This document shows, one piece after another, positions 33,390-36,860 of a DNA stretch of 64,000 nt. The translations under genes and the position numbers were made by a program. The notes under the pieces are model-generated. The model was not told the origin of the DNA. It searched no databases and was given only the letters and a program-made list of their open reading frames with translations. Within the stretch, counting starts at the first letter, position 1; each line of letters starts with the position of its first letter. Origin of the DNA: Gaiellaceae bacterium (lineage in GTDB: Bacteria > Actinomycetota > Thermoleophilia > Gaiellales > Gaiellaceae); the NCBI GenBank assembly GCA_035688315.1, contig DASSND010000066.1, forward strand, positions 4,237 through 68,236. Direction: 5' to 3'.

Positions 33390-34155
33390 CGAGCAGCACC
33401 TCCTTCAGCGTGTCGCCGCGCAGGCCGAGCCGCAGCGTCTCGAGCGGGATGACCTCCTCGGGCGGGATGTTGCCGAGGTTGACGTTGGAGCCGAAGTGCT
33501 TGACGAACCAGGCCTGGCTCGCCTTCGTCGGCGCCTCCCAGATCAGGTTGGCGAACGAGATCGAGTGCTCGATCTCGTCGACGAGCCCGGTGCGCAGCTC
33601 GCCGGTCGGCCGGTAGATCCCGGCGGTGCCGCCCTCGCGGCCCTCGGTGATCACCTTCCAGGCGCCCGCCTCCAGCTCGTCCTTGATCCACTGCACCCAC
33701 TGGAAGGGCGCGAACACGACCTCGGTGTCCTTCGAGCCGACCTCGGAGAGGACGGTGAAGTCGCGGGCGAAGTCGGCGATCAGCTCGAGCTTGCGCTCGC
33801 GCGGGATCTCGATCGTGCCGTCGGAGATCTCGACGTGGGTGAAGCGGTGCTCCTGCAGCCACGCCTTGAACTCGTCGAGCCGGCCGCGCGCGTAGACGGC
33901 CTCGAAGAGCGTGCCGCCGCAGACGACGGGCGTCTCGAAGGAGCGGTAGAGCGCGATCTTCTTCTCGAGGTTGTTCGTGACGTAGCTCGTGCCCCAGCCG
34001 AACTTGACGATGTCGACGAACTGGCCGGCGGTGTCGAAGAGGCCCTCGACGTCGCGCAGGTTCAGCCCCTTGTCGATCACGTGCGTCAGCCCCTCGGAGC
34101 GCGGCTTGCCGGGGCGCGGCGGCAGGTCGAGAAAGCCGTCCTCAAAGGCGGGCAT
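33358..34155 (-). CDS. comA: (2R)-phospho-3-sulfolactate synthase
   Basis: 265 aa, with the ComA blocks I recall from the methanogen enzyme: [86 protein letters not shown]. Confidence 0.85.
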
Positions 34156-34729
34156 AGAGCTCCTCCAGCTTCTTCGTCGCGGCGGCCTGGACGTCGTGGT
34201 AGAGCGAGTTGCCGTGGGCGTCGATGCCGACGGTGAGCGGGCCGAAGTCCTTGACCCGGAACTTCCAGAGGCACTCGGGCATCAGCTCCTCCCACTGCAC
34301 CTCCTCGATCTCCTCGATCTGCGTCGTCTCGAGCGCGGCGGCGCCGCCGACGATCGCGAAGTAGACCATCCCGTGCGCTCGCATCGGCTCGATCGCCTCG
34401 TCGGGGAAGCCGCCCTTGCCGCAGATCGCGCGCACGCCGTAGCGTTCTCCCAGGCCTTCGGTGAAGCGAACCATCCGCGCCGAGGTGGTGGTGCCGATGC
34501 AGACCTTCTCGTAGCGGCCGTCGGCGAGCTTGCGCACGCCGGGCGCCGTGTGCAGGAGGAAGGCGCCGCTGAGGTCCATCGGCGGCTCCATGCCCTGGTC
34601 GAAGATGCGGATCTGCGTCCGGTCGCGGATGCCGACGATGTGCCCCTGCACGATCACCTCGTCGCCGGCGCGGAGCTTCAGGATCTCCTCCGGGTCGGCG
34701 ATCGGGAACGTGATCTCGTGCGTCGCCAT
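34142..34729 (-). CDS. Fe-S hydro-lyase beta subunit (class I fumarate hydratase / L(+)-tartrate dehydratase beta-type)
   Basis: In-frame ATG at 34729. Sequence: MATHEITFPIADPEEILKLRAGDEVIVQGHIVGIRDRTQIRIF...HTAPGV...IGTTTSARM...ICGKGGF...VYFAIVGGAAAL. The 195-aa size matches the beta subunit of the heterodimeric family. Confidence 0.8.
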   Translation of the reverse strand: MATHEITFPIADPEEILKLRAGDEVIVQGHIVGIRDRTQIRIFDQGMEPPMDLSGAFLLHTAPGVRKLADGRYEKVCIGTTTSARMVRFTEGLGERYGVRAICGKGGFPDEAIEPMRAHGMVYFAIVGGAAALETTQIEEIEEVQWEELMPECLWKFRVKDFGPLTVGIDAHGNSLYHDVQAAATKKLEELYARL

Positions 34730-35625
34730 CAGGCCTCCCTGTCGAAGTCGGTGGCGCCGTCGGCGGCGACGTGCGCGGTCGCGCGCCGGGCCGCCCAGCA
34801 CTGGTAGTTGACCGCCACCGGGTTGAGCGTCATGTGCGTGTCGGCGTGCTCGACGTGGCAGTTGAGGACGGTGACGTCGCCGCCGAGCCCCATCGGCCCG
34901 ATCCCGGTCTCGTTCAGGAGCCCGTACAGCTCCTCCTCGAGCTTCGCGACCTCCGGGTCGGCGTTGCGGGTGCCGATCGGCCGCGCGATCGCCTCCTTCG
35001 CGAGGTACATCGCGTAGTCGGCGGAGCCGCCGATGCCGACGCCGACGATCCCGGGCGGGCACGGCTTGCCGCCGGCGCCGACGATCGACTCGAGCACGAA
35101 CTGCTTGACGCCCTTCACCCCGTCGGCCGGGTTGAGCATCTTCAGGAAGCTCATGTTCTCGGAGCCGGAGCCCTTCGGCACACACTTGACGTCGAGCCCG
35201 TCCCAGTCGGCGACGAACTCCCAGTGCACGATCGGCAGCCGGTGCCCGACGTTCGGGCCGGTGTTCTGCCGCGTGAGCGTGTGGACGGCGTTCGAGCGGA
35301 GCGGATGTTCGAGGGTCGCGCGCGCGGTGCCGTCGCGGAGCGCCTCGTAGATCCGCGCCGGGTGGAGCGGGAAGTGCTCGCCGACGCGGCAGGTGTAGAC
35401 GGCGATGCCGGTGTCCTGGCAGACGAGATTCTTCTCGGTGTCGGCGACCTCGACGTTGCGGAGGATCGTGCCGAGGACGCGCTGCCCGGGCACCGAGGTC
35501 TCGCGCCCGGCGGCGTCGCGGAGCGCGTCGCGGAGATCCTGCGGGATGTCCTTCAGCGCCCAGACGTAGAGGTGTGCGGCCGCGTCCTCGACGGCGCGCT
35601 GGAGATCGGTTGCGACGGCGTTCAT
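34729..35625 (-). CDS. Fe-S hydro-lyase alpha subunit (class I fumarate hydratase / tartrate dehydratase alpha-type)
   Basis: In-frame ATG at 35625 (ATGA overlap). Contains NLVCQDTGIAVY, KCVPKGSGSENMSFLKML and GKPCPPGIVGVGIGGSADYA (the three Cys-containing blocks of the family). 298 aa. Confidence 0.8.
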   Translation of the reverse strand: MNAVATDLQRAVEDAAAHLYVWALKDIPQDLRDALRDAAGRETSVPGQRVLGTILRNVEVADTEKNLVCQDTGIAVYTCRVGEHFPLHPARIYEALRDGTARATLEHPLRSNAVHTLTRQNTGPNVGHRLPIVHWEFVADWDGLDVKCVPKGSGSENMSFLKMLNPADGVKGVKQFVLESIVGAGGKPCPPGIVGVGIGGSADYAMYLAKEAIARPIGTRNADPEVAKLEEELYGLLNETGIGPMGLGGDVTVLNCHVEHADTHMTLNPVAVNYQCWAARRATAHVAADGATDFDREA

Positions 35626-36860
35626 GCTCTCGCTTTCCCGGCGGCGGCCGCGCCCGCGCGGCGGCCGTAGACGACGCATTCGAGGAGGCTGTTCCCCATC
35701 ATGCGGTTGCGGCCGTGCGTGCCGCCCGCGATCTCGCCGCAGGCGTAGAGGCCGTCCAGCGTCGTCTCGGCGTTGGTGTCGATGACGAGCCCGCCGTTCT
35801 GGTAGTGGAGGACAGGGTAGGTGAGGATCTTCTCGCGCAGCGGGTCGATCCCCCCGGCGCGGTAGCGGCGAAGCATGTACGGGAGCGAGACCTCGGCGTC
35901 GCGCTCCGGGATGCGGGTCGTGTCGAGCCAGACCGCGGGGCGGCCGTCCTCGGTCTGGACGCCCCTGCCCTTCGCGACCTCGTCGAAGATCGCCTGCGAG
36001 ACGACGTCGCGGGGCGCGAGCGAGTCGCAGAACTCCTCGCCGTCGGCGTTGACGAGCACGGCGCCGTAGGCGCGCGTCGTCTCGGGGATCGAGTAGCCCT
36101 GCATCGTCTTCGGCCAGGCGCCGCCGTTCGGGTGGTACTGGAGCGCGTCGAGGTCGCGCGCCTCGGCGCCCAGCTCGATCGCGGCGCGGGTGACCTCGCC
36201 GGTCGCGCCGGGATGGTTGGTGGACAGCTCGCCGCGCTCCTCGGCCTCGCGGTAGCAGCGCCCGCCGGCCGCGAGCACGACGGTGCCCGCGTCGAGCTCG
36301 TGCTCGCCGCAGCGCGCGCGCCAGCCGTTGTCTGCGGGCTCGAGCGCGCGGAGCGGCGACTTCGGGAAGACGGTGACGCCGCTCGCCTCGACCGCGTGCC
36401 GCAGCACGGAGGTGATCGCGAGCCCGGTCTGGTCGCCGACCTGGAGCAGCCGCTTCGCGGAGGCGCCGCCGCACCGGGCGAGCCGGTAGCCGCCGTCCTC
36501 CTCGCGCGTGAACTCGACGCCCAGCTCCTCGAGCCAGTGGATCGCGCCGGGCGCGTCGGCGGTGAGCGCCTCGACGAGCCGCATGTCCGCGGTCTCGTGA
36601 CTGGAGCGCCACACGTCCTGGGCGTGCTGCTCCGGCGAGTCGTCTGCGCCGAAGGCGGCCTGGATGCCGCCCTGCGCCTTCGCCGAGTTGCAGGACTGGA
36701 TCGAGCCCTTCGTCGCGAGCGCGACCCGCGCGCCGGCCCGCTCGGCGGACACGGCCGCCGCGAGCCCGGAGGCCCCGGAGCCGATCACGAGCACGTCGAA
36801 ATGACCGTTCGTCGTCGCCACGCCGCGCGTGACTATACCCAAGCGCTCCTCATGCGTCAC
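35622..36860 (-). CDS. FAD-dependent oxidoreductase of the fumarate reductase / succinate dehydrogenase flavoprotein / L-aspartate oxidase family (short form)
   Basis: 412 aa, GTG start. Contains FDVLVIGSGASGLAAAV (dinucleotide fold), AKAQGGI, LQYHPNGG (the HPT-like active-site block) and YACGEIAGGTHGRNRMMGNSLLECVVYGRRAG (the C-terminal FAD block). It lacks the long C-terminal helical domain of SdhA/FrdA. Confidence 0.75.
   Translation of the reverse strand: MTHEERLGIVTRGVATTNGHFDVLVIGSGASGLAAAVSAERAGARVALATKGSIQSCNSAKAQGGIQAAFGADDSPEQHAQDVWRSSHETADMRLVEALTADAPGAIHWLEELGVEFTREEDGGYRLARCGGASAKRLLQVGDQTGLAITSVLRHAVEASGVTVFPKSPLRALEPADNGWRARCGEHELDAGTVVLAAGGRCYREAEERGELSTNHPGATGEVTRAAIELGAEARDLDALQYHPNGGAWPKTMQGYSIPETTRAYGAVLVNADGEEFCDSLAPRDVVSQAIFDEVAKGRGVQTEDGRPAVWLDTTRIPERDAEVSLPYMLRRYRAGGIDPLREKILTYPVLHYQNGGLVIDTNAETTLDGLYACGEIAGGTHGRNRMMGNSLLECVVYGRRAGAAAAGKARA

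Follow-up and report, generated by a model that had tools for sequence, protein, structure and literature searches.

A putative route from sulfate to a C3 sulfonic acid in Gaiellaceae, combining ComA with a class-I fumarase-type hydro-lyase and a short FrdA-like flavoprotein

The chemistry of ComA and XcbC is already known from the biosynthesis of coenzyme M (CoM), in which XcbC of Xanthobacter autotrophicus eliminates phosphate from phosphosulfolactate, yielding sulfoacrylate (PMC9457059), and the ComA-ComB pair is known from methanogens and Bacillus. Here we analyze an operon in which a ComA gene is combined with genes for the two subunits of a class-I fumarase-type hydro-lyase (FumA and FumB, together FumAB) and for a short flavoprotein related to the fumarate reductase subunit FrdA. 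It is located in a stretch of 64,000 nucleotides (nt) from a Gaiellaceae bacterium (assembly GCA_035688315.1, contig DASSND010000066.1), hereafter the window, which has ~74% G+C and whose closest relatives are metagenome-assembled soil Gaiellaceae (Thermoleophilia, Actinomycetota). With confidence somewhat better than even, we propose from sequence comparisons that the genes of the operon form a self-contained pathway that starts from sulfate and yields 3-sulfopropanoate, a C3 sulfonic acid, by way of FumAB and the flavoprotein. The initial annotation, made from the DNA letters alone, regarded this enzyme combination as undescribed, and our search of the literature on the combination, on biosynthesis of sulfoacrylate or 3-sulfopropanoate, on sulfonated acyl groups and on XcbC likewise returned no description of the operon's pathway. 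What it returned instead concerned the biosynthesis of CoM and the catabolism of sulfoquinovose and 2,3-dihydroxypropane-1-sulfonate (DHPS), as well as the 2-sulfoacetyl group of misaugamycin, which originates from a different ComA cassette. In this literature we found no description of a ComA-linked FrdA-like flavoprotein, of its pairing with XcbC homologs and ligases in glycan clusters, or of a class-I fumarase-type enzyme that takes the place of XcbC.

The genes of the operon, all on the minus strand, are given below in their order of transcription; APS and PAPS denote adenosine 5'-phosphosulfate and its 3'-phosphorylated form, and lengths are in amino acids (aa).

35622-36821 (start of the longest open reading frame (ORF) at 36860), minus strand: flavoprotein, 399 aa; Pfam FAD_binding_2, E = 3.7e-68
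34729-35625, minus strand: hydro-lyase alpha subunit (FumA); Pfam Fumerase, E = 2.5e-91
34142-34732, minus strand: hydro-lyase beta subunit (FumB); Pfam Fumerase_C, E = 8.7e-28
33358-34155, minus strand: ComA; Pfam ComA (PF02679), E = 1.7e-85
32724-33389, minus strand: CysH-type (P)APS reductase; Pfam PAPS_reduct, E = 2.3e-40; NCBIfam NF002537, 212.5 bits (cut-off 154)
32164-32727, minus strand: CysC, APS kinase; Pfam APS_kinase, E = 1.3e-60
31259-32158, minus strand: CysD, sulfate adenylyltransferase subunit 2; Pfam PAPS_reduct, E = 5.4e-58; homologs equally placed in relatives
29358-31262, minus strand: CysN-CysC fusion, sulfate adenylyltransferase subunit 1 and APS kinase; Pfam GTP_EFTU and APS_kinase
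28483-29361 and 27602-28471, minus strand: two tandem TauE/SafE-family membrane proteins; Pfam TauE, E = 9e-40 and 1.2e-36

The E-values of these Pfam matches lie far beyond chance. As the sequence itself shows, the first four genes are translationally coupled: a 4-nt overlap (ATGA) joins the flavoprotein gene to alpha, alpha and beta share 1 nt (TGATG), and beta and comA overlap by 14 nt. Both the Pfam families and the junctions thus agree with the first annotation of the locus, which had described a fumarate-reductase-like flavoprotein and a class-I hydro-lyase of two subunits, overlapped with each other and with comA. At its other end the operon closes with the two TauE paralogs, which are 61% identical to each other and could transport sulfate or sulfite, or export the sulfonate; the close relatives L001 and L002 (related loci carry L numbers here), both annotated with Pfam, have a single TauE gene each instead of two. 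An Rfam search of the region 27-46 kb revealed no riboswitch or other RNA.

ComA is predicted to be a conventional phosphosulfolactate synthase acting on sulfite and phosphoenolpyruvate (PEP). It scores 286.8 bits with the Pfam profile (cut-off 25.2), covering profile positions 2-243 of 243, and it matches YitD of B. subtilis (1U83, E = 5.8e-59) and ComA of M. jannaschii (1QWG, E = 3.5e-45) with conserved blocks throughout; its identity to XcbB of Xanthobacter is 40%. With the archaeal-built NCBIfam model TIGR03849 (arch_ComA) it reaches 240.7 bits, below the equivalog cut-off of 280. The absence of ComB claimed in the initial annotation holds to the extent of the scan: there is no match to PF04029 among the operon proteins or the ~55 window proteins scanned, those of ComB size included (a few short or ambiguous ORFs lay outside this set), and the Pfam annotation of nine related loci (L001, L002, L083-L089) shows no ComB either. 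The operon also encodes no sulfopyruvate-consuming enzyme (ComDE or an aminotransferase). O- or N-sulfation may be a further use of the PAPS that the two APS kinases help to make; a sulfotransferase-like gene is located downstream of the operon in 13 Gaiellaceae loci (e.g. at 15406-16407 of L051).

The two subunits of the hydro-lyase differ in how closely they follow the described families. The alpha subunit scores 305.6 bits with the NCBIfam fumarate hydratase model NF004885 (equivalog cut-off 276), matches the alpha subunit of the two-subunit fumarase of M. jannaschii (7XKY_A, E = 7.8e-74) and conserves the motifs CQDTG, KGSGSENMS, CPP and QCW. The beta subunit clears no cut-off but that of the broad FumA-C/TtdB model TIGR00723 (153.9 bits, threshold 145) and remains under the cut-off of the fumarase-beta model NF004708 (152 bits versus 269), and neither subunit attains the equivalog cut-offs of the tartrate dehydratase TtdAB (212.2 versus 365 bits for alpha, 150.4 versus 264 for beta). 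In beta, the RD, TTSARM and GKGG motifs are kept, while the usual GPTTS reads GTTTS. As judged from these alignments, FumAB retains all cluster-ligand and catalytic motifs of the class-I enzymes, and a motif comparison for sulfonate-specific substitutions in FumA and FumB yielded nothing decisive, the change from GPTTS to GTTTS being the only difference. The genomic context, on the other hand, argues for a sulfonated analog rather than fumarate and malate as the substrate pair of FumAB.

For the flavoprotein, every NadB, Frd and Sdh model in NCBIfam scores below its own cut-off. The top score is that of the NadB (L-aspartate oxidase) model TIGR00551, 259.9 bits versus a cut-off of 452.75, and the protein ends at position 387 of the 489 positions of this model. 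The position of NadB Glu121, the residue in contact with the amino group of the substrate, is occupied by Cys in the window protein and by Cys, Ala or Gly in its family. We rejected the assignment as NadB, given the cut-off missed by ~190 bits and the absence of both Glu121 and the C-terminal helical domain. An AlphaFold2 (AF2) model of the protein (pLDDT 96.4) has as its top structural match E. coli FrdA (1KF6_A), with a TM-score of 0.91 over the query (TMq) but 0.64 over FrdA (TMt), which indicates that the flavoprotein comprises the FAD-binding and capping domains only (FAD, flavin adenine dinucleotide), the C-terminal domain of FrdA being absent. In the alignment to E. coli FrdA, the residues H232, E245, R248, R287, H355 and R390 are kept, whereas H44 is changed to Asn, T234 to Asn (as also in L003) and T244 to Pro. 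Alongside 12 "long" relatives and 8 NadB/Sdh-like sequences, we aligned 17 short flavoproteins that are linked to ComA or belong to XcbC modules. All 17 short proteins keep H232, E245, R287, H355 and R390, and 16 keep R248 (the exception is L084); the position of Thr244, just before Glu245, is Pro in 17/17 of them, but Thr or Ser in every one of the long relatives and NadB/Sdh-like sequences. The histidine that binds FAD covalently is absent (Asn at the position of His44), as in soluble reductases, and so are two further features of complex-II flavoproteins, the C-terminal domain (the protein has 399 aa) and an adjacent gene for an FrdB-like Fe-S subunit. By these comparisons the protein is neither NadB nor a complex-II subunit, but a soluble enzyme of the FrdA type whose active-site loop is altered. 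A role as an AprA-like APS reductase that would supply sulfite was considered too, prompted by the ATP sulfurylase gene that adjoins comA in some loci devoid of FumAB. This idea was set aside, since the 25 top-ranking of the 48 NCBIfam matches include no AprA model; it is also disfavored by the full dicarboxylate-binding set of FrdA that is retained and by the CysH already present in the Gaiellaceae operon.

The "long" relatives of the flavoprotein are about 530-535 aa in length, carry an N-terminal extension and form a separate clade; their genes adjoin those for 2Fe-2S proteins or FumA/FumB, with no ComA. The 42-44%-identical relatives in L078-L082 and ~75 metagenome loci were rejected as orthologs on these grounds, being N-extended, with 2Fe-2S or FumAB neighbors and no ComA. 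In 11 contigs (L097, L102, L129, L135, L137, L143, L144, L146, L147, L149 and L152), several of which come from human gut metagenomes, a long flavoprotein is adjacent to FumA/FumB in the absence of ComA. These, which are not orthologs of the window genes, are probably genuine, as yet uncharacterized soluble fumarase/fumarate-reductase pairs, and they may represent the source from which the trio of the window was recruited.

The distribution of the genes was analyzed in a scan of relatives restricted to one genome per species, which returned 80 loci; counts for Gaiellales refer to the 58 loci with a flavoprotein at least 57% identical to that of the window and at least 4 kb of downstream sequence. 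The flavoprotein gene is followed by ComA in 58/58 of these loci, and FumA and FumB stand between the two in 57, the exception being L020, in which ComA follows the flavoprotein directly. Of the 58 loci, 50 encode CysH, 49 an APS kinase and 41 a TauE protein; a TauE gene is also present in 36 of the 48 related loci with long flanks. In L001 an additional short-chain dehydrogenase (SDR) is encoded between the flavoprotein and FumA (11197-12036). Orthologous trios that occur mostly without comA, named in the initial annotation as evidence against its reading, were not observed: the orthologs are always accompanied by comA. A different arrangement is observed in seven more distant actinobacterial loci with flavoproteins 49-59% identical to that of the window, and likewise in the abundant family of L086-L088: the order is LysR-flavoprotein-ComA, with no FumAB, in six of the seven and in L086-L088, while L063 has ComA upstream of the flavoprotein. 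The coupling of the whole trio to ComA, as annotated at first, therefore stands for Gaiellales, but the conserved core is the flavoprotein-ComA pair, FumAB being absent in other Actinomycetota. Near ComA of several FumAB-less loci (L065, L068, L071, L073, L076 and L086-L088), directly after it or a few genes on, there is a gene for a ~650-aa secreted protein with only a weak match resembling glycoside hydrolase family 42 (GH42).

Two further genes on the minus strand of the window recur upstream of the flavoprotein in relatives.

42159-43145, minus strand: group-III iron-type alcohol dehydrogenase (Fe-ADH); NCBIfam matches all below cut-off
43142-44041, minus strand: LysR-family regulator; Pfam and NCBIfam LysR matches

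The LysR gene is found upstream and on the same strand in 63 related loci and abuts the flavoprotein gene in the FumAB-less relatives; it is probably the regulator of the operon. In 52 related loci the Fe-ADH gene precedes the flavoprotein gene in the same orientation, in many of them as its direct neighbor, and its top NCBIfam matches, sub-cut-off without exception, are 4-hydroxybutyrate dehydrogenase, the Fe-ADH of phosphonate clusters and sulfoacetaldehyde reductase.

Loci outside Actinobacteria were found with a profile of more distant short flavoproteins, followed by a look-up of the contigs. There are nine of them (L083-L085, L089, L091, L092, L171-L173), among which are Saprospiraceae, Nitrospirota, Magnetovibrionaceae and contigs from TARA ocean samples, the module being represented in Bacteroidota, Nitrospirota, Alphaproteobacteria and marine contigs. 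They encode flavoproteins of ~400 aa with 30-40% identity, whose genes adjoin one for a Lyase_1 protein in 9/9 cases, for ComA in eight and for an ATP-grasp or adenosine monophosphate (AMP)-forming ligase in eight, and all nine lie within polysaccharide clusters, with glycosyltransferases, DegT aminotransferases, epimerases, Wzy and Poly_export. The lyases are 30-42% identical to XcbC (Xaut_5053), with E-values from 1e-57 to 1e-103, as compared to 1e-5 to 1e-14 for XcbD. For the two lyases that were scanned, from L089 and L085, the top NCBIfam model is NF052535 (CoM_syn_XcbC), with 387 and 447 bits, versus 255 and 274 for ArgH. Conversely, a tblastn search with five XcbC-type queries detected no XcbC homolog in the window or in L001-L082, and in the loci examined FumAB and XcbC homologs never occur together. 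A Gaiellales locus, L059, bridges the two types: its ATP-grasp, flavoprotein-FumA-FumB-ComA and DUF7033 (VimE-like) genes correspond to the order ATP-grasp-flavoprotein-XcbC-ComA-DUF7033 in the XcbC-type locus L089. Because these loci share accessory genes, and because FumAB and XcbC are mutually exclusive, FumAB appears to occupy the slot of XcbC, and by this comparison its presence in Gaiellales is a non-orthologous replacement. The position of FumAB in this slot points in turn to sulfoacrylate as the substrate of the flavoprotein. As for the XcbC-type modules themselves, sulfoacrylate is predicted to be made there beside an FrdA-like enzyme with a complete fumarate-binding set, which argues for its reduction to 3-sulfopropanoate.

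Put together, these observations suggest a route of four steps. CysD, CysN-CysC, CysC and CysH would activate sulfate and reduce it to sulfite via APS/PAPS. ComA would then join sulfite and PEP to form (2R)-phosphosulfolactate. From this, FumAB would generate sulfoacrylate, either from (R)-sulfolactate released by a phosphatase encoded elsewhere or, less probably, from the phosphoester itself. Finally, the short FrdA-like flavoprotein, with its non-covalently bound FAD, would reduce the C=C bond of sulfoacrylate to give 3-sulfopropanoate. (R)-Sulfolactate has the configuration of L-malate, which makes it a plausible substrate of FumAB. The sequence from sulfolactate via sulfoacrylate to 3-sulfopropanoate had been put forward in the initial annotation; it gains comparative support from the XcbC homologs encoded beside the same family of flavoproteins, and nothing in our results contradicts it. 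The formation of sulfoacrylate followed by reduction of its C=C bond seems the most economical reading of the gene sets.

Several points weigh against this proposal. A class-I fumarase acts on a hydroxyl leaving group, and neither the window nor the related loci yielded a phosphatase for phosphosulfolactate. FumA scores as a true fumarate hydratase and its active site has no substitution that would point to a sulfonate. In the actinobacterial loci devoid of FumAB, XcbC is missing from the vicinity as well, so that the scheme offers no source of sulfoacrylate for them, nor does it assign an electron donor to the flavoprotein, which stands alone. The conserved Fe-ADH has no role in the scheme. 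A ligase is found beside the operon in L059 alone among the Gaiellales loci, and the operon of the window has none. The gene identities, the translational coupling, the conservation and the link of this flavoprotein family to ComA and to XcbC homologs across phyla are shown; all substrates, the directions of the steps, the electron donor and the fate of the product are inferred.

The alternative closest to this scheme keeps its steps, but has FumAB replace XcbC in the full sense, i.e. eliminate phosphate directly from phosphosulfolactate, so that no phosphatase of the ComB type would be needed. It would account for the lack of ComB or any other conserved phosphatase in the window and related loci as scanned and for the position of FumAB where XcbC is located elsewhere, the two being mutually exclusive, and the departures of beta from the known enzymes (scores under both the fumarase-beta and TtdB equivalog cut-offs, GTTTS in place of the canonical GPTTS) fit it as well. 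We nevertheless regard it as unlikely. We know of no member of the class-I fumarase/tartrate dehydratase family that eliminates phosphate, and such a reaction would be unprecedented in this family; all malate-binding residues of the solved enzymes are retained, with no obvious phosphate pocket; and a housekeeping phosphatase encoded elsewhere is the simpler assumption.

Decidedly improbable, in our view, is an oxidative role of the flavoprotein, which in the manner of NadB or of SdhA acting on malate would convert sulfolactate or phosphosulfolactate to (enol)sulfopyruvate and so replace ComC, while FumAB would be auxiliary, serving either enol-keto tautomerization or the supply of fumarate as electron acceptor. 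FrdA-family enzymes oxidize malate, and NadB uses fumarate as acceptor, both of which speak for this role, as do the rank of NadB as the best-scoring NCBIfam model (its 259.9 bits), the FumAB-less actinobacterial loci, for which ComA and the flavoprotein would suffice, and the extra SDR in the operon of L001. The same NadB model, however, is missed by ~190 bits, and the residue corresponding to Glu121 is replaced by Cys, Ala or Gly. Moreover, the intermediate in the XcbC-type modules is already unsaturated, so that sulfolactate is bypassed and no obvious substrate for an oxidase is left, and the operon offers no enzyme, such as ComDE or an aminotransferase, to consume sulfopyruvate. Finally, it is very improbable that FumAB and the flavoprotein carry out ordinary C4-dicarboxylate chemistry, as a fumarase and a soluble fumarate reductase or aspartate oxidase, and merely share an operon with ComA and the genes of sulfate assimilation, a view favored by the score of FumA above the curated fumarate hydratase cut-off, by the retention of all fumarase and FrdA substrate-binding motifs and by the 11 metagenome contigs, some of them from human gut, that pair a long flavoprotein with FumA/FumB and no ComA, but opposed by the translational coupling and the linkage to ComA in 58/58 Gaiellales loci, by the persistence of the flavoprotein-ComA link both where FumAB is missing and where XcbC replaces it, and by the fact that the flavoproteins found with FumAB only belong to the separate, N-extended 535-aa clade that keeps Thr244, whereas the ComA-linked ones all have Pro.

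If the route to 3-sulfopropanoate is correct, the product would most likely be used to acylate an amino sugar of a cell-envelope glycan, a fate that the ligase and deacetylase genes of related modules suggest and that we propose with lower confidence; the alternative is its export, through TauE. The product may thus be a glycan-attached 3-sulfopropanoyl group rather than the free acid. Because the XcbC-type modules contain a ligase and a VimE-like DUF7033 protein, the attachment would be to the freed amino group of a nucleotide sugar; the DUF7033 protein of L089 has as its top NCBIfam match the sugar N-deacetylase VimE (NF053580, 212 bits, below cut-off). The operon of Gaiellaceae is itself located in a glycan locus, with Bac_transf, AsnB/WbpS-like, DegT, CapD-like, DUF354, FlgD_ig and PIG-L proteins, to which relatives add Wzy. 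On these grounds one can imagine, as a tentative possibility that we do not consider probable, a single pathway across phyla in which PEP and sulfite are converted to a 3-sulfopropanoyl group by ComA, via sulfoacrylate, and an FrdA-like reductase, the group is ligated to a de-N-acetylated amino sugar of the envelope, and XcbC has been displaced by FumAB in Gaiellaceae, possibly with new leaving-group chemistry. Elsewhere in the window there are two ATP-grasp genes of the L-amino-acid-ligase type (5096-6304 and 9944-11152, both minus strand), each beside a transporter of the major facilitator superfamily (MFS) and a TetR gene. Their identity to the ATP-grasp ligases of the modules with ComA, XcbC and the flavoprotein is 26-30%. 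They lie 22-28 kb from the operon, with no link to it, and are possible candidates for using the sulfonated acid.

Between the Fe-ADH and flavoprotein genes, and divergent from the operon, the window carries a complete cluster for a ribosomally synthesized and post-translationally modified peptide (RiPP) of the thiazole/oxazole-modified microcin (TOMM)/azoline type (36969-42152, plus strand). Its products are a precursor of 53 aa whose core is rich in Cys and Ser (36969-37130), a partner protein of 307 aa that has no Pfam match, YcaO, a SagB-type nitroreductase, a fusion of a CPBP protease with an ATP-binding cassette (ABC) ATPase, and an ABC-2 permease. A functional link between this cluster and the operon was rejected, as it occurs nowhere but in the window and three relatives (L001, L002 and L046), and Fe-ADH abuts the flavoprotein gene in most relatives; the cluster is thus an inserted element and no partner of the operon. 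Near the end of the window (59495-62558 and 63394-63996, minus strand) there are two radical S-adenosylmethionine (radical-SAM) genes of the CofH/MqnC type and a UbiE-type methyltransferase gene, which have no relation to the operon and probably serve the biosynthesis of a cofactor or of menaquinone.

Organosulfonates are a large and poorly mapped part of the sulfur cycle, and to our knowledge few biosynthetic routes to them from sulfite have been established. The related gene sets in many phyla suggest an undescribed and widespread way to sulfonated building blocks, perhaps for surface sugars. If true, the proposed pathway would add to ComA chemistry a new branch after sulfoacrylate, the reduction of its C=C bond, and would provide a function for thousands of short flavoproteins that are now annotated as "L-aspartate oxidase" or "FAD-dependent oxidoreductase"; a search for the short flavoprotein gave more than 8000 matches from soil metagenomes alone. 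It would also constitute a case of enzyme replacement, with a class-I Fe-S fumarase taking the same pathway slot as a lyase of the class-II superfamily, and it would predict that surface glycans carry a new sulfonated decoration, both in phyla of marine and fresh waters and in Gaiellaceae, a family that ranks with the commonest actinobacteria of soil.

Comparison with the described systems places the operon as follows. With the ComA-ComB(-ComC) route of methanogens and of the B. subtilis yit operon it shares ComA, and the B. subtilis operon too has genes for sulfate activation and PAPS reductase; the window, however, lacks ComB, ComC and ComDE and has the hydro-lyase and the flavoprotein instead. 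With the bacterial CoM pathway (XcbB-XcbC of Xanthobacter autotrophicus Py2; PMC9457059) it has in common the start with a ComA homolog and, as proposed here, the sulfoacrylate intermediate. It differs in lacking homologs of XcbA, XcbD and XcbE, hence no thiol would be introduced, in having an unrelated class-I Fe-S hydro-lyase where XcbC would stand and in the addition of an FrdA-like flavoprotein, which has no counterpart in the CoM pathway.

At the level of the individual enzymes, FumAB shares the fold family and the cluster-ligand and catalytic motifs with the fumarate hydratase of M. jannaschii (PDB 7XKY) and with TtdAB, but its beta subunit falls under both cut-offs, its context is that of sulfonate biosynthesis in the slot of XcbC, and its proposed substrate is sulfolactate rather than malate. 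The flavoprotein resembles the soluble members of the FrdA family (Fcc3 of Shewanella, yeast Osm1, NadB, TfrA) in its FAD-binding and capping domains, non-covalent FAD and full His/Arg substrate set. It departs from them in being only ~400 aa long, in lacking a C-terminal, cytochrome or Fe-S partner domain, in its linkage to ComA, in the changes of Thr244 to Pro and (in Gaiellaceae) of Thr234 to Asn, and in the absence of Glu121 of NadB. As to the fate of the product, the closest described parallel is the deacetylate-then-re-acylate logic of the Wbp/Vim proteins (Porphyromonas gingivalis; PMC7468200). No such deacetylase or ligase is encoded beside the operon of the window, but the related modules, including L059, combine a VimE-like deacetylase with an amide-forming ligase and adjoin DegT, glycosyltransferase and Wzy genes; in place of an amino acid attached through VimA, they would attach a sulfonated C3 acid through an ATP-grasp or AMP-forming ligase.

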